DNA of 64,000 nt from a virus: the IMG/VR virus record IMGVR_UViG_3300036770_008028, positions 93,499 through 157,498 of that record; one strand, written 5' to 3'. A program made the position numbers and the translations under genes. Under the pieces are notes generated by a model. It saw nothing but the letters and a program-made list of their open reading frames with translations, did no database searches and had not been told where the DNA came from. This document shows, one piece after another, positions 26,819 through 35,122 of the stretch (position 1 is its first letter; the number at the start of each line of letters is the position of its first letter).

Positions 26819-27382
26819 ATGAATGACTATTTTTTCCAACCAATAGATCTGCCACCGCTTCCGGAGCGCTTTGTCGAACAGGCTCTGACTGGAACTCGGA
26901 CTGATCTCTTGGTGACCAGCGTTGACAGGCAGATACATGATCGAGGCAGTGTTTATCGTAATGCACAACTACAACGCTGGCGACTTAGCCAAGATCTGGT
27001 AGAGTGGCTGCACCAACAGGGCATCAAAGGATTCGACGACGTTTCGGTACAGACCATACAGCAAGGCGATACCTTGGGCCCGCACACTGACAGTTGGCAA
27101 AGCTGCAAACTGTTCTATCTTTTGGAACCGGGTGGTCCAAACGTGGAAACGATATGGTATCAGCAACCAGGACATGATTTGATCCGGGAAAAATTCCTTT
27201 TGATTGAAGATACCAAGGACCTTGAAGTGGTTCATAGGATGGTTATTCCACCGCGGCAGTGGGGCTTCATCAATGTGCGAATTATACATGAAGTAAAAAA
27301 CATGACCAACCGCAGAGAAACTGTGGTTGCCAGTTTCACTGACTACATCGATTTCTCACCTTTGGTGGTGCAGAAAAAATAG
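26819..27382 (+). CDS. Cupin/2OG-Fe(II) oxygenase-like protein
   Basis: LGPHTD ... IIHEV..M...R; paralog of 49581-50216. Confidence 0.6.
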   Translation: MNDYFFQPIDLPPLPERFVEQALTGTRTDLLVTSVDRQIHDRGSVYRNAQLQRWRLSQDLVEWLHQQGIKGFDDVSVQTIQQGDTLGPHTDSWQSCKLFYLLEPGGPNVETIWYQQPGHDLIREKFLLIEDTKDLEVVHRMVIPPRQWGFINVRIIHEVKNMTNRRETVVASFTDYIDFSPLVVQKK

Positions 27383-27401
27383 GCCCCATAACAGGGCCTA
27401 T
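27375..27401 (-). terminator. Intrinsic terminator after tmRNA
   Basis: ATAGGCCC-TGTTATG-GGGCCTAT hairpin followed by a T run on the minus strand. Confidence 0.75.
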
Positions 27402-27706
27402 CCTGACATTTTTGATAACAAGGCATGTCTGCCCCGGAGATCATGCTGCTAAGGCAAAGATCTCGTCATTGGATGCGTTGGCATCTATTGGTTTTGCTTG
27501 ATTTAGGGTCATCGCCTACCCCGCTGTCCACTCGGCTACTCCTTGCCCTGTCGAAACCATGTTCAGGCCCATCATAAGCAGTCGCAATCGGTATAGGTTG
27601 ATCAAATCTATACCAATCCGTCCTAAGCGTAACAACTGCTTATGGTGGACCTGCCGGGATTCGAACCCGGGTCCAGAACACATTTTGCTCTGCTTCATAC
27701 AGCGAT
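27402..27706 (-). ncRNA. ssrA: Circularly permuted (two-piece) tmRNA
   Basis: The acceptor piece (...GGTTCGAATCCCGGCAGGTCCACCA, ends 27643) precedes the coding piece (GGGCCTGAACATGGTTTCGAC, starts 27570). G3-U70 pair present. Tag ANASNDEIFALAA* at 27482-27441. Outer ends are approximate. Confidence 0.93.
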
Positions 27707-27826
27707 AATGACGAAACTGCCAGGACATGTACGGGCTTCGCCTGCCCTAAGGCCTCACACCTTATCGATCTTGCCAGTGGATTGATCAAGCGCCACTGGG
27801 GATATACTCCTGCACAGTAAGTCTAT

Positions 27827-31098: not shown

Positions 31099-31174
31099 TG
31101 GCCCGTCCAGGAGGAATCGAACCCCCGTATAGATGTTTAGAAGACACCTGCGTCATCCACTACGCTATGGACGG
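31099..31174 (-). tRNA. tRNA-Arg(TCT)
   Basis: Cloverleaf, anticodon loop CTTCTAA, encoded CCA. Confidence 0.9.
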
Positions 31175-31181
31175 ATTGTGC

Positions 31182-31255
31182 TGGAGCGCCCGGAGAGAAT
31201 CGAACTCTCGATCCCACGTTGGCAACGTGGCGTTTTGCCCCTAAACTACGGACGT
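31182..31255 (-). tRNA. tRNA-Gly(GCC)
   Basis: Loop TTGCCAA, U73, CCA. Confidence 0.9.
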
Positions 31256-31258
31256 TAG

Positions 31259-31732
31259 TTATGCGGCTCTCACGCTCTTGAGCCTGTCGGCGGCATAACT
31301 GGCAGCCCAGGCCACGGGCTTTACCATGGGGATCACATTGCATGTACCACGGATGTATCCGATAGCCTGTTGCACCACGCAACTGGATCCATGCATCTCG
31401 TTGGGATTTAGATCTAGGTGCACTTCGATGGGCCACCCTGCCAGCACCGGAGCCAACCTCTGGAACAGTTCGCTCACGCGATACACTTCGTTCATGAGAC
31501 GCATGCTGGGACGATTGTACCGCTGATCATAGTCGCGTTCGCGGTCCATCTCACCAAAGATCTTGCAACCATTGTTGCCGTTGCGATGGATCACAGCCAC
31601 GGTGGTGTATTCGGCCCACCACTGTCGACCCACTTTGAAACGTTCTGAATCCGCACCAATATAGATGCGTGTGCCAGGCCCTAAGTCATGCACATAGATT
31701 TGTATTTGTTCTGGATCTATCCTTGGCATCAT
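31259..31732 (-). CDS. RNase H-like YkuK/DUF458-family protein inside the tRNA array
   Basis: IYIGADS...RLMNEV...EVHLDLN...KP.AWAASYAAD; GGGAGG Shine-Dalgarno. Confidence 0.8.
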   Translation of the reverse strand: MMPRIDPEQIQIYVHDLGPGTRIYIGADSERFKVGRQWWAEYTTVAVIHRNGNNGCKIFGEMDRERDYDQRYNRPSMRLMNEVYRVSELFQRLAPVLAGWPIEVHLDLNPNEMHGSSCVVQQAIGYIRGTCNVIPMVKPVAWAASYAADRLKSVRAA

Positions 31733-31754
31733 GCCTCCCTTGGTTATTTACTCT

Positions 31755-31831
31755 TGGCCGGTCCTGACGGATTCGAACCGCCGGCTTCCTGTTTCGAAGA
31801 CAGGCACTCTAGTCCACTGAGTTAAGGACCG
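31755..31831 (-). tRNA. tRNA-Arg(TCG)
   Basis: Loop CTTCGAA, CCA. Confidence 0.9.
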
Positions 31832-31835
31832 CGAC

Positions 31836-31928
31836 TGGTGGAGAGTGTGGGATTCGAACCCACGGCCCCGATTTCTCGAAGCAACACCTTAGCAGGGTGC
31901 CGATTTAAACCGACTCATCCAACTCTCC
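31836..31928 (-). tRNA. tRNA-Ser(GCT)
   Basis: Loop CTGCTAA, long variable arm, CCA. Confidence 0.9.
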
Positions 31929-31932
31929 GACA

Positions 31933-32025
31933 TGGTGGAAGAGGTGAGACTCGAACTCACACACCCATCTCTGGGCCTTCGGTTTTCAAGACCGCTGCCG
32001 CTATGCCGATTCGGCTAACTCTTCC
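31933..32025 (-). tRNA. tRNA-Ser(TGA)
   Basis: Loop CTTGAAA, long variable arm, CCA. Confidence 0.9.
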
Positions 32026-32138
32026 ATATTCGTACCGGTTACCGGATCCGGTGCAGACTTTTGGTCCCTGCGGCTCGTAAACTCACCCACCCTTGACGCC
32101 ATGCTCTGCAGAGGGCCAGCCGGGTGACGCTGTGTGCT

Positions 32139-32216
32139 TGGTACCCCTGCTCAGATTCGAACTGAGAGTGCTTCTCCTTTTGAGAGAGACGGCTTTACCA
32201 ATTTGCCCACAGGGGT
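32139..32216 (-). tRNA. tRNA-Leu(CAA), short variable region
   Basis: Loop CTCAAAA, 78 nt, CCA. Confidence 0.85.
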
Positions 32217-32217
32217 C

Positions 32218-32294
32218 TGGTGCGGAACCTGGGATTCGAACCCAGACTGTGAGGTGTTTAAGACCTTGACCTCTGCCGATTGGGCTAGTTCCGC
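32218..32294 (-). tRNA. tRNA-Leu(TAA), short variable region
   Basis: Loop CTTAAAC, 77 nt, CCA. Confidence 0.85.
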
Positions 32295-32300
32295 TTGATA

Positions 32301-32378
32301 TGGTACCCCAGGAGAGACTCGAACTCTCAATGAACAGTTTCTAAGACTGCCGTGTATACCTGATTCCACCACCGGGGC
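32301..32378 (-). tRNA. tRNA-Leu(TAG), short variable region
   Basis: Loop CTTAGAA, 78 nt, CCA. Confidence 0.85.
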
Positions 32379-32384
32379 ATTGAT

Positions 32385-32460
32385 TGGTGCTGATTGAGAG
32401 AATCGAACTCCCGACCGGCGCATTACGAGTGCGTTGCTCTACCAACTGAGCTAAATCAGC
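32385..32460 (-). tRNA. tRNA-Thr(CGT)
   Basis: Loop CTCGTAA, CCA. Confidence 0.92.
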
Positions 32461-32465
32461 GTGTA

Positions 32466-32541
32466 TGGTGCCGACTCCTGGTTCCGCGCCAGGCTCTCCT
32501 GCTCTTCAGGCAGGCGCTTTCACTAGATTAGCTTAGTCGGC
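32466..32541 (-). tRNA. tRNA-Phe(GAA) with atypical T-loop
   Basis: Loop CTGAAGA; T arm CCTGG-CGCGGAA-CCAGG; CCA. Confidence 0.8.
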
Positions 32542-32654
32542 AAAAGGTTCCCGAGACCGTGCTTACCCGCGACACGATAGTCATCACTAACCAGAGGATG
32601 GGTCCAGAGCCACTGGCGGCCGGCTGCACTTACTGAGATGACTGGAACAAAACT

Positions 32655-32728
32655 TGGTGCGTCGTGAAGGAATCGAACCTCCGTCTGATCCTTGTAAGGG
32701 ACCGGCCCTACCATTAGACGAACGACGC
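32655..32728 (-). tRNA. tRNA-Val(TAC)
   Basis: Loop CTTACAA, CCA. Confidence 0.9.
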
Positions 32729-32729
32729 A

Positions 32730-32804
32730 TGGGGTATCCTAAGGGTATCGATCCCTTGCCGTGGGCTCCACACGCCCAAGTGCTGCCATTACACCAAGGA
32801 CACC
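32730..32804 (-). tRNA. tRNA-His(GTG)
   Basis: Loop GTGTGGA, G-1:C73, CCA. Confidence 0.85.
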
Positions 32805-32806
32805 AT

Positions 32807-32881
32807 TGGTACCACCGCCAGGAATCAAACCTGGTTCTCAGCCTTCGCAGGGCTGTGTGACCGTCATTTCACCACGGTGAT
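32807..32881 (-). tRNA. tRNA-Arg(GCG)
   Basis: Anticodon arm CAGCC-CTGCGAA-GGCTG; T-loop TTTGATT; CCA. Confidence 0.8.
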
Positions 32882-32934
32882 ATCGAGAGACGAGAGGCTG
32901 GCTTACAAGGCTCGTTACGGCATCGTCCTCAAAC

Positions 32935-33008
32935 TGGTCTCGGTGGCAAGAATCGAACTTGCGCCACATGCTCCCAAAGCACGCATGATACCATTTCACC
33001 ACACCGAG
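32935..33008 (-). tRNA. tRNA-Pro(TGG)
   Basis: Loop TTTGGGA, CCA. Confidence 0.9.
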
Positions 33009-33012
33009 TACA

Positions 33013-33086
33013 TGGCCGGGGCACTAGGACTTGAACCTAGACTAGCACAGTCAAAGTGTGCGGTGCTGCCATTACACTATGCCCCA
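33013..33086 (-). tRNA. tRNA-Gln(TTG)
   Basis: Loop CTTTGAC, G73, CCA. Confidence 0.9.
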
Positions 33087-33091
33087 AAAAT

Positions 33092-33166
33092 TGGTGCTGA
33101 TGAGAGGAATCGAACCTCCGACTTACGCCTTACCAAGGCGTTACTCTACCCCTGAGTTACATCAGC
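33092..33166 (-). tRNA. tRNA-Thr(GGT)
   Basis: Loop TTGGTAA, CCA. Confidence 0.92.
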
Positions 33167-33167
33167 T

Positions 33168-33244
33168 TGGTGGCGATGGAGGGATTCGAGCCCCCGATCT
33201 TCCGCGTATGAAGCGGCTGCATTAACCTGCTATGCTACATCGCC
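33168..33244 (-). tRNA. tRNA-Met(CAT), elongator-like
   Basis: Loop TTCATAC, paired G1-C72, CCA. Confidence 0.85.
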
Positions 33245-33248
33245 TGGG

Positions 33249-33323
33249 TGGTAGGGGCAGCAGGGATTGAACCTGCGACCTCGATGTTAAAAGCATCTTG
33301 CTCTTCCGCTGAGCTATACCCCC
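33249..33323 (-). tRNA. tRNA-Lys(TTT)
   Basis: Loop CTTTTAA, CCA. Confidence 0.88.
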
Positions 33324-33324
33324 A

Positions 33325-33372
33325 TTACTGCACATTGTCTCTGATCCACTGCCAGTATTCTGCTGCGGTCAT
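33325..33372 (-). CDS. 15-aa micropeptide MTAAEYWQWIRDNVQ
   Basis: AAGGAG Shine-Dalgarno 6 nt before the ATG; fills the Ile-Lys tRNA spacer. Confidence 0.55.
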   Translation of the reverse strand: MTAAEYWQWIRDNVQ

Positions 33373-33391
33373 GATCATCTCCTTGTGTGAT

Positions 33392-33465
33392 TGGTACCCG
33401 ATGATGGTTACGATCCAACGTCGCGCGATTATCAATCGCGTGCTCTACCATTGAGCTAATCGGGT
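33392..33465 (-). tRNA. tRNA-Ile(GAT)
   Basis: Loop TTGATAA; T-loop ATCGTAA; CCA. Confidence 0.85.
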
Positions 33466-33466
33466 C

Positions 33467-33540
33467 TGGAGCGGCGAAGGGGAATCGAACCCCTGTCATC
33501 AGCTTGGAAGGCTGTCATAATACCATTATACTACCGCCGC
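33467..33540 (-). tRNA. tRNA-Gly(TCC)
   Basis: Loop CTTCCAA, U73, CCA. Confidence 0.9.
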
Positions 33541-33545
33541 TGGCT

Positions 33546-33620
33546 TGGTGGAGATGGAGAGAATCGAACTCTCAATTCCTGCTTGCAAAACAGGTGTGTT
33601 CCCATTAGCACTACATCCCC
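33546..33620 (-). tRNA. tRNA-Ala(TGC)
   Basis: Loop TTTGCAA, G3-U70, CCA. Confidence 0.9.
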
Positions 33621-33625
33621 GTTGG

Positions 33626-33703
33626 TGGAAGTGAGGGTGGGATTCGAACCCACGGTTGCACCGGGTTGCAGCCGGTTGCCTTGGACCACTCGGCCACCTC
33701 ACT
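33626..33703 (-). tRNA. tRNA-Cys(GCA)
   Basis: Loop CTGCAAC, U73, CCA. Confidence 0.9.
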
Positions 33704-33709
33704 ATGTTG

Positions 33710-33796
33710 TGGCTCCAAGGGCAGGGATCGAACCTGCGTCCACTCACGTGCTCACCGGTTAACAGCCGGGGCCCTTACCTCTAGGGGTACCTTGGA
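33710..33796 (-). tRNA. tRNA-Asn(GTT) with extended variable arm
   Basis: Loop CTGTTAA, G73, 87 nt; CAC-GTGA-GTG mini-hairpin in the variable region. Confidence 0.82.
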
Positions 33797-33803
33797 AAGA
33801 ATT

Positions 33804-33877
33804 TGGTAGCGGGACCCGGAGTCGAACCAGGAACGGAGGCTTATGAGACCTCCATGATGCCATTTCAATATCCCGCA
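33804..33877 (-). tRNA. tRNA-Met(CAT), initiator-like
   Basis: Loop CTCATAA; mismatched 1:72 pair (U:U); 5' TGCGGG. Confidence 0.78.
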
Positions 33878-33885
33878 TGGATCGG

Positions 33886-33960
33886 TGGTGCTGGTGGAGA
33901 GAATCGAACTCCCAATCTACTGATTACAAATCAGTTGCCTTACCATTGGGCCACACCAGC
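33886..33960 (-). tRNA. tRNA-Thr(TGT)
   Basis: Loop TTTGTAA, CCA. Confidence 0.92.
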
Positions 33961-33979
33961 AAGAACTTTACTTATATCA

Positions 33980-34053
33980 TGGCTACGGTGGAGGGAATCG
34001 AACCCCCATCATCAGTTTTGGAGACTGAGGTAATACCATTATACCACACCGTA
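33980..34053 (-). tRNA. tRNA-Trp(CCA)
   Basis: Loop CTCCAAA, G73, CCA. Confidence 0.9.
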
Positions 34054-34058
34054 ATGAT

Positions 34059-34149
34059 TGGTACTCCCGGGGGGAGTCGAACCCCCATCGGCCGATTATC
34101 TGTCGCTACGGGGTATAAGCCCGCTGTTTTACCATTAAACTACAGGAGC
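34059..34149 (-). tRNA. tRNA-Ile(TAT) with long variable arm
   Basis: Loop CTTATAC, 91 nt, CCA. Confidence 0.82.
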
Positions 34150-34157
34150 GAAAAATC

Positions 34158-34232
34158 TGGCGGTGCCAAGGGGTAACGATCCCCTTCTTCGAGCGTGACA
34201 GGCTCGTGTGCGTCCATGAACACTTTGGCACC
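34158..34232 (-). tRNA. tRNA-Asp(GTC)
   Basis: Loop CTGTCAC, G73; T-loop ATCGTTA; CCA. Confidence 0.88.
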
Positions 34233-34238
34233 TAGAAC

Positions 34239-34313
34239 TGGTACACGGTACGGGAATCGAACCCGTCTTTACGGCGTGAAAGGCCGTTGTCCTAACCGAT
34301 AGACGAACCGTGC
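34239..34313 (-). tRNA. tRNA-Glu(TTC)
   Basis: Loop CTTTCAC, CCA. Confidence 0.9.
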
Positions 34314-34319
34314 ATGACA

Positions 34320-34406
34320 TGGTGGGTGCCCACGGATTCGAACCGCGAAGGCCAAAGACAAGAGATTTACAGTCTCCCCCCGATACCGTTACGGGACTAG
34401 ACACCC
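34320..34406 (-). tRNA. tRNA-Tyr(GTA)
   Basis: Loop CTGTAAA, extended variable region, CCA. Confidence 0.88.
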
Positions 34407-34411
34407 AAAAA

Positions 34412-34616
34412 TGGCGGTTCTTGTGGACTTTCACCACACTCTTGCATTCTGAGAGCTTTACCAGTGTCCCGTATCGTCACCGGTCAGGGCTATTGTCAGG
34501 GGTTGCATGACGACCTAGGCTAGACATTGCGTGTGACTAGCACGCCTGTTTCTCGCCTGTCCATCACTACCTGGCAGGGAACTGAGAGCTCAGAAGGAGT
34601 ACCTTTCCAGAGAACC
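34412..34616 (-). ncRNA. 205-nt tRNA-like RNA (acceptor stem, T arm and CCA around a large structured insert)
   Basis: 5' GGTTCT pairs with 3' AGAACC-G-CCA; T-like arm TGTGG-TGAAAGT-CCACA; inner stems TTCTGAG/CTCAGAA and CAGTTCCC/GGGACACTG. Confidence 0.6.
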
Positions 34617-34850
34617 ATACTTGAACACACTACTGAGTCGGCGACCGTGCAGCCGAACGTGATCGGTCCTCTCCGCGGATGCTCCGTGTTCTGAGAGTAA
34701 TGTGTTCAAATATGGTGCCACTTGCGTGGCCACCATCGACAGGATCGTGTCCTGCCCAGTGATTTTTCACACCACACAAGGTGCTTCATCCCACTGTCCG
34801 CCCGTTTGTCCTTTTATTGTACGCTGACCTGGCCCTCGTTGCCTGGCGTA

Positions 34851-34886
34851 TAAAACAAAAAACCCTGGTATCTCTCGATCCAGGGT
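34851..34886 (-). terminator. Intrinsic (attenuator) terminator upstream of the tRNA array
   Basis: ACCCTGG-ATC-GAGA-GAT-A-CCAGGGT followed by TTTTTGTTTT. Confidence 0.88.
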
Positions 34887-34928
34887 CCCGGTAGTTTGAA
34901 CTGATTACAACTCGATCTACTGGGACCC
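34883..34928 (-). promoter_or_regulatory. Antiterminator hairpin overlapping the terminator 5' arm and the leader-peptide stop
   Basis: GGGTCCCAGTAG (34928-34917) pairs 11/12 with CTACCGGGACCC (34894-34883); bases 34886-34883 are shared with the terminator stem. Confidence 0.8.
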
Positions 34929-35048
34929 TCCACTATCACTATTCTCGATCGCACGGGCATAGACTGATAGGGATCCAAACCATGTAGGCTGGCAACCTAG
35001 CGTCTTGGGCAAATGCATCGATATGAGTGATAATTGTTGAGTCATCAT
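34917..35048 (-). CDS. 43-aa leader peptide MMTQQLSLISMHLPKTLGCQPTWFGSLSVYARAIENSDSGGSQ containing all 20 amino acids
   Basis: Hand translation; starts 7 nt after the -10 box; stop codon lies in the antiterminator 5' strand. Confidence 0.8.
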   Translation of the reverse strand: MMTQQLSLISMHLPKTLGCQPTWFGSLSVYARAIENSDSGGSQ

Positions 35049-35055
35049 AGTATCT

Positions 35056-35084
35056 ATTGTATGGGTTTATTTATACCTCGTCAA
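35056..35084 (-). promoter_or_regulatory. tRNA-array promoter: sigma70-like with embedded T4-late-like TATAAATA
   Basis: TTGACG (35084-35079)-17 nt-TACAAT (35061-35056); TATAAATA at 35075-35068. Confidence 0.85.
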
Positions 35085-35095
35085 CCTTTGTTTTG

Positions 35096-35122
35096 AAAAA
35101 CCCTACCAAAATTAGGGTTTTT
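35096..35122 (-). terminator. Terminator-like inverted repeat after ahpD
   Basis: AAAAACCCTA...TAGGGTTTTT; would insulate the tRNA leader from ahpCD read-through. Confidence 0.65.

Follow-up and report, generated by a model that had tools for sequence, protein, structure and literature searches.

The tRNA array of an uncultivated phage is preceded by a short leader open reading frame (ORF) and a pair of competing RNA hairpins, which together quite likely form a transcription attenuator coupled to the ribosome, whose role would be to gauge how much usable tRNA is available. As judged from modelled folding, this phage would probably make its own tRNAs only when ribosomes stall on some codon of the leader. 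The mechanism would be a known one, leader-peptide attenuation, in a new design and with a new cargo; classical leaders repeat the codons of one to three amino acids, whereas the phage leader contains all 20.

The element lies on the minus strand of the window, by which we mean the whole 64,000-nt stretch of DNA analysed here (positions 93,499 to 157,498 of IMG/VR record IMGVR_UViG_3300036770_008028; coordinates below are those of the window). The viral contig holding the window is 157 kb long and linear and was judged 44% complete, so that the phage genome is probably about 350 kb in size. A permuted tmRNA of betaproteobacterial type was found 3' of the tRNA array (27350-27735, minus strand), an RNA polymerase omega-like gene (PF01192; 30800-31036, minus strand) lies downstream of the array, and short contigs binned with Polynucleobacter contain leaders of relatives; we infer that the host was a freshwater betaproteobacterium. 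Apparent host-chromosome copies of the element in Polynucleobacter, Haliscomenobacter, and Flavobacteriales bins were rejected as such, as they lie on short contigs with phage-type leaders and are probably co-binned phage.

Promoter and leader ORF

As the first-pass annotation of this DNA had described, a sigma-70-type promoter (35056..35084, minus strand; TTGACG at 35084-35079 and TACAAT at 35061-35056, with a 17-nt spacer and 10/12 consensus matches) precedes an ATG-initiated ORF of 43 sense codons (34917..35048, minus strand), which holds 20 amino acids in 34 distinct codons and in which codons 5-26 are the longest run without a codon repeat. Ten residues occur once each, there are no runs of control codons, and the Trp codon is located at 34982-34980 (minus strand). 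Because the ATG is 8 nt past the -10 box and lacks a Shine-Dalgarno sequence, the leader mRNA is probably leaderless, with the ORF starting at the predicted transcription start; the same leaderless geometry was seen in 34 of the 82 family leaders. The promoter spacer also contains a T4-late-type motif, TATAAATA (35068-35075, minus strand), that is common to most relatives (TAAATA occurs at most 70 nt upstream in 63/82 leaders), and of the 17 ATAAATA sites in the genome, 11 have an ORF start no more than 40 nt away. The TATAAATA motif may be used as a late promoter, which would keep the sensor transcribed late in infection, and the combination of sigma-70-type promoters and ATAAATA motifs would fit the use of host RNA polymerase.

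Upstream of the leader, a hairpin and T-run read from the sequence (35096..35122, minus strand) end an ahpC-ahpD unit, whose genes were assigned by Pfam. This hairpin is also present in two relatives (L003 and L006) and would insulate the leader promoter from the ahpC-ahpD unit. A link between ahpCD and the attenuator was considered and dismissed as incidental, since the element is absent from most ahpD relatives.

For one single ORF, the presence of all 20 residues is suggestive and not decisive: it is found in 1.5% of 43-codon windows of the genome's genes and in 3.0% of stop-free nucleotide shuffles, in agreement with the 2-3% estimated earlier for a random ORF, while all 20 residues together with at least 34 codons occur in 0.16% of gene windows. 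The spread of synonymous codons over isoacceptors, which had also been read from this ORF, did not stand there (P=0.17 versus uniform synonymous choice) and held only across the family (see below). No family or relative of the leader peptide was found in Pfam or Atlas.

Antiterminator and terminator

The final three codons of the leader and its stop (34917..34929, minus strand) form the 5' strand of a putative antiterminator, and its 3' strand (34882..34894, minus strand) overlaps the 5' arm of an intrinsic terminator (34852..34886, minus strand; -17.5 kcal/mol) with a GC stem, a GAGA loop, and a U tract at 34862-34852. The hairpin proposed at first (34928-34917 with 34894-34883) was recovered with 11/12 pairs plus a closing A-U, and it does compete with the terminator for ACCC(U), so that pairing and covariation identify the two structures as mutually exclusive. 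Such an attenuator architecture was found at 1 of the 15 terminators of the 157-kb contig, and a search of bacterial genomes for the same GGGUC/GACCC geometry returned true his, trp, and leu attenuators as a positive control.

Covariation of the stem among relatives, suggested as a check, was evident in an alignment anchored on GGG and CCC only (79 cases): the next antiterminator positions pair in 70/79 and 68/79, versus at most 62 and 60 on permutation, and the substitutions include changes from C-G to U-A. In two relatives (L156 and L181), the antiterminator and both terminator arms have changed jointly.

We then modelled stalled ribosomes by blocking the mRNA 9 nt beyond the A site and folding the nascent RNA. 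In this model, stalls at codons 1-36 leave the antiterminator with a probability of at least 0.95, which falls to 0.87 at codon 37, to 0.48 at Asp38, and to about 0 later; the terminator is certain from codon 38 on. Family medians agree with this profile of stall positions. The predicted sensing zone would comprise codons 1-37; a ribosome held at codons 1-36 would let transcription continue, one that has reached codon 38/39 would cause termination, and the position of the ribosome would decide the outcome: a ribosome at the end of the ORF would block the antiterminator, and stalls upstream would not. An earlier concern that ribosomes stalled at Glu35, Asn36, and Asp38 might partly cover the antiterminator was apt for Asp38, which is borderline, and not for the other two, which are both predicted inside the sensing zone. 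By codon 36, 19 amino acids have made their first appearance in the window leader, and across the family the last new residue lies a median of 5 nt before the antiterminator, as would follow from a sensing zone filled right up to its limit. Folding at full equilibrium gave a different result for stalls at codons 24-27, which favour the terminator (0.8), and this counts against the attenuator reading. In classical attenuators, a 1:2 helix brings about termination on an untranslated leader; here, in the absence of a ribosome, the terminator has an equilibrium probability of 0.89 in the window phage (family median 0.35), and on nascent RNA the antiterminator is favoured (family median 0.98).

Downstream RNAs and the tRNA array

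The order of terminator and tRNAs given in the first-pass annotation was right as to the array, but about 450 nt of other RNA lie between the terminator and the first tRNA. The first product of read-through would be a conserved structured RNA (34757..34848, minus strand) with an invariant AACGAGG loop, AAACGGGCGG, and variable stems; the AACGAGG/AAACGGGCGG pattern was matched in at least 120 viral contigs, and the first hairpin (the AACGAGG stem) covaries. This RNA may serve as a signal for processing or be an RNA in its own right. Next are a long predicted hairpin RNA (34613..34712, minus strand; fold of -34.4 kcal/mol), the ends of which are partly common to L003 and L008, and a non-coding element of about 205 nt with a CCA end (34412..34616, minus strand), which folds no better than shuffles (z -0.02). 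None of these three RNAs had a match in Rfam. In many relatives (L081, L094, L095, L099, and others), the first gene past the attenuator, located between the terminator and the conserved RNA, is an ORF that encodes about 50 basic/helical residues with the motif HTL..E/Q and is itself conserved; it is absent from the window.

The array itself (31099..34406, minus strand) consists of 30 tRNA genes for all 20 amino acids, the number and coverage reported at first: ARAGORN detected 28 tRNAs within 31099-34313, and Rfam added tRNA-Phe (32469-32541) and tRNA-Tyr (34323-34406; 31.9 bits, cut-off 29). An RNase-H-like gene (PF04308, assigned by Pfam; 31732-31259, minus strand) lies inside the array. 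A consensus scan from 35056 to 31554 found no strong promoter and, with the upstream hairpin ending the ahpCD transcript, the array seems to depend on read-through. Two of its members, a tRNA-Ile with a UAU anticodon and a long variable arm (34059-34149, minus strand; also in L003 and phage DLP_6) and a tRNA-Arg with a GCG anticodon (32807-32881, minus strand), would both bypass lysidine and inosine, two modifications made by the host. GOLLD RNAs were observed within the putatively attenuator-controlled tRNA blocks of relatives (L130:3512-3976 and L090:1-458).

A family of leaders selected for residue coverage

About 295 loci were collected by terminator pattern, by ahpD, and, independently of the leader, by the conserved downstream RNA. 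Applying one rule (a terminator, an overlapping upstream helix, and the longest ATG ORF ending within that helix) gave 115 distinct complete leaders of 22-63 codons, which precede tRNA arrays or the conserved downstream RNA. Terminator, antiterminator, and ORF were all present at 67 of the 82 loci chosen by the downstream RNA alone, and the arrangement, whose conservation in related phages had been put forward as a check, is kept in more than 100 phage loci. Outside this collection, a blastn search with the region returned only chance matches from cultured phages. The tRNA regions inspected in three cultured phages (DLP_6, BUCT-ZZ01, and XacN1) show no such leader, and no cultured example of the element emerged.

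All 20 residues are present in 55 of the 115 leaders, versus 2.9 expected from length-matched gene windows or 4.3 from shuffles. The corresponding count was 39/65 in the set found solely via the downstream RNA motif, and 6/16 (versus 0.35-0.5 expected) in the independent set clustered at 35% identity, while the two other frames of the same DNA gave 3/115 and 4/115, with 3-4 stops each. A pooled-composition null yielded 2.4 all-20 leaders (maximum 8) versus 35 observed, and column permutation yielded 4.3 (maximum 10, 2000 permutations) versus 23, under permutation nulls that do not fully remove the relatedness of leaders. Rare residues are under-dispersed (Trp mean 1.07, variance 0.09; His mean 1.26, variance 0.28), and they move yet are kept, so that the anticipated retention of all 20 residues despite drift was found. 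For example, Val, Phe, Cys, Lys, and Pro shift between columns in the window's subfamily, where leaders have a mean of 19.4 residue types versus 18.1 (maximum 18.8) on permutation; a leader 88% identical to that of the window (L115) has lost the Phe after Trp and gained a Phe after Tyr, and Val was found in four different columns among the closest relatives.

The leader sequences diverge to below 35% identity, and a check for arrest motifs found only one Trp and the RNA-dictated terminal Gly-Ser widely kept in the peptides. A pN/pS of 0.46 over 31 disjoint leader pairs, with an excess of third-position changes, suggests ORFs that are translated-like and weakly constrained. At the codon level, decoding classes given the peptide number 2395 versus 2271+-15 expected (767 versus 735+-7 with 40% clustering), and in four- and six-codon families, C/U pairs, both read by one tRNA, are depleted (77 versus 111) and A/pyrimidine pairs are enriched (429 versus 346). 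Codon repeats are also avoided in one-tRNA amino acids, Asn type (z -3.4), which counts against the attenuator reading. Judged by these sequence statistics, the leader family is real and strongly selected, and not a product of chance.

We also observed a single Trp that is retained almost without exception, usually 13-17 codons ahead of the antiterminator, in contrast to other rare residues, which change position. An RNA element or an exit-tunnel contact are candidate causes of this retained Trp.

Leader composition and the downstream tRNAs

The interpretation in the first-pass annotation is supported overall by these comparisons, but its claim that the loss of any host tRNA would induce the array is too strong. 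What a leader contains tracks the tRNA block that follows it in the same phage. Amino-acid types of downstream tRNAs that are missing from their own leader number 16 of 1136, versus 61+-6 on permutation (15 versus 27+-4 with 40% clustering), a match that rests largely on short block-specific leaders (P=0.23 for long leaders only with 40% clustering). Tandem leaders in L130, L181, L223, and L228 divide residues as their tRNA blocks do, and in four phages whose Glu/Tyr/Asp tRNAs sit in a block apart, headed by a short leader of its own, Asp, Tyr, or both are gone from the main leader. A counter-example is L068, in which the leader lacks Glu and Val and the array has both tRNAs.

Coverage is much stronger at the amino-acid than at the isoacceptor level. 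An isoacceptor-exact match of leader and array was rejected for the window phage alone (21/28, P=0.24), and across the family the isoacceptor match is modest (P 0.003-0.015). Measured against an E. coli-type set of 41 anticodons, which we assume as a yardstick and which may not fit the actual host, the leader probes about 33; most decoding classes are therefore covered, but not all of them, since Leu-CTG is absent, as are Arg-AGA and Arg-CGA, the codons of the phage's own Arg-UCU and Arg-UCG tRNAs. The best reading of these sequence comparisons would be a cargo-matched attenuator, of which "all 20" is the limiting case and not a test of every host tRNA; the window leader would hold all 20 amino acids because its cargo covers all 20. 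As classical leaders need tandem control codons, single codons would by analogy answer near-total loss of a tRNA rather than graded starvation. Such a response fits, and does not prove, tRNA cleavage by host defence (PMC10264068), and host anticodon nucleases may be the natural trigger.

Proposed mechanism and alternative explanations

We propose that host RNA polymerase would start at about 35048, and that a ribosome would load on the leaderless AUG and trail the polymerase. Upon prompt decoding, the ribosome would arrive at codons 38-44 and cover the 5' strand of the antiterminator, the terminator would fold, and transcription would end near 34855. If the ribosome were held at codons 1-37, or none had loaded, the antiterminator would form first, and the polymerase would continue into the non-coding RNAs and the 30 tRNAs. 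With one or few codons per kind and no runs, mild starvation would be ignored and near-complete loss of any of many tRNAs would be sensed, and the phage tRNAs, by restoring decoding, would shut the operon in a negative feedback. That single codons pause weakly unless depletion is severe speaks against the attenuator reading. The chances seem to us evenly balanced that this is, more broadly, a widespread "tRNA audit" element, with a leader that would have evolved to contain each amino acid and the majority of decoding classes once, through which the destruction of almost any tRNA by host defence would call up the full replacement set and which would, in some genomes, have an RNA ligase as its cargo.

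Alternatively, the attenuator may be real but serve as a general gauge, either of how fast translation runs or of amino-acid starvation, so that uncharged tRNA, antibiotics, ribosome toxins, or scarce free ribosomes would all uncouple the ribosome and induce the array, and residue diversity would merely broaden the range of insults caught. We consider this unlikely, although the antiterminator is the predicted default on nascent RNA without a ribosome (family median 0.98), amino-acid-level coverage far exceeds isoacceptor-level coverage, E. coli toiL has been published as a uORF that serves to sense stresses of several kinds (PMC12121999), an Anabaena tRNA array is induced by general translational stress (PMC8421152), and RNA ligase genes rather than tRNAs follow similar leaders in two Myxococcota bins. 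A general gauge would keep the residues whose tRNAs have shifted to another block with its own leader, yet the leaders lose them; nor does it account for the larger-than-expected number of decoding classes for the given peptide, in which C/U pairs are scarcer and A/Y pairs more frequent, and extra tRNA is no cure for a shortage of amino acids.

The peptide might itself be functional, as an arrest peptide or a small protein, with hairpins that just terminate its transcript, and the pN/pS value with its excess of third-position changes and the nearly constant Trp 13-17 codons before the antiterminator would accord with this. It is nevertheless very improbable for peptides of 22-63 residues that fall below 35% identity, whose rare residues move, and that have no Pfam or Atlas relative, as nothing about a protein would call for each rare residue exactly once (variance far below the mean). 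Hardly credible is that the ORF arose by chance within an untranslated leader and that the terminator behind it is an ordinary one: a single all-20 ORF does arise in 1.5-3% of cases and this one lacks a Shine-Dalgarno sequence, but the family statistics, frame specificity, and covariation refute it.

Relation to known systems and significance

Leader-peptide transcription attenuators control amino-acid operons through trpL, hisL, pheL, leuL, and thrL, and the leader of ilvGMEDA is multivalent (Ile/Leu/Val). Like these classical leaders, the cargo-matched attenuator proposed here has a short ORF and a mutually exclusive antiterminator and intrinsic terminator, between which ribosome position decides (here as modelled). 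Unlike them, it is phage-borne with a leaderless start and one to few codons of all 20 amino acids, without runs or clusters of control codons for one to three amino acids, and its cargo is non-coding RNA and tRNA genes instead of biosynthetic or synthetase genes. T-box riboswitches bind uncharged tRNA directly, with one specifier codon and no translation; the phage element would resemble them as a terminator/antiterminator switch reporting tRNA status, and no T-box (stem I, specifier loop, T-box bulge) was matched by Rfam at the locus. Rfam leader families had no match in the window, and the short leaders of two relatives scored 26-29 bits on Rfam Trp_leader (cut-off 41).

Mycobacterial poly-Cys attenuators are leaderless short ORFs that act as ribosome-stalling sensors heading an operon (bioRxiv 10.1101/834739), and they share with the phage leader a leaderless sensor ORF at the operon head; unlike it, they have a single-amino-acid tract and control a ribosome-binding site, not an intrinsic terminator. 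The E. coli uORF toiL responds to many insults through stalls at different positions (PMC12121999). Unlike the phage leader, it senses antibiotics, acts via translation repression and Rho, and has a toxin-antitoxin cargo, and for it no selection for full residue coverage has been described. In Anabaena (trn operon/TrcR), a long tRNA array is silent until translational stress (PMC8421152, PMC10272220) and is co-induced with an rtcB RNA ligase gene (PMC8421152); this array is controlled by a repressor at direct repeats, unlike the attenuator-led phage array, and a leader or attenuation is not mentioned (PMC8421152). That phage tRNAs counter host anticodon nucleases is a hypothesis on tRNA sequence (PMC10264068); it supplies an ecological reason for a replacement tRNA set, and its abstract names no sensor or conditional expression. 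In our literature search, of incomplete coverage, neither all-residue leaders nor phage tRNA arrays under attenuator control turned up.

The purpose of phage tRNAs has been open for over 50 years (PMC10264068), and a regulatory element tells the purpose of a gene set. If the arrays are switched on by stalled decoding, their tRNAs would be an inducible response to tRNA loss and not a constant supplement to codon usage; if the "audit" reading also holds, the array would be a counter-defence that is conditional and limits itself, and would directly show that responding to tRNA loss is what phage tRNAs are for. The attenuator design would be inverted, in that coverage replaces repetition and selection acts on the composition of the peptide and not on its sequence. 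At about 240 nt, the element is testable directly in E. coli and is a potential general reporter for tRNA-targeting defence systems.

Similar leaders beyond phage-type loci

One scan of bacterial genomes, small in numbers, gave loci in bacterial bins, on contigs that may be chromosomal or mobile. In two Myxococcota bins (L309:1129-2700 and L337:4478-5870), related 49-codon leaders with the same switch contain 20 and 18 residues, respectively, and have as cargo a DRB0094-family RNA ligase (TIGR02306) and an HNH-type gene. Metagenome relatives of this ligase were found at two loci; one of them offered no DNA upstream, and the other has no evident leader. The RNA ligase cargo fits RNA-damage sensing. 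A Planctomycetia bin (L304:133-3350) has a 56-codon all-20 leader with the same switch, located 40 nt upstream of an array that is high in GC and comprises at least 21 tRNAs, and at a further locus (L301) a short leader precedes Lys/Asn/Pro tRNAs.
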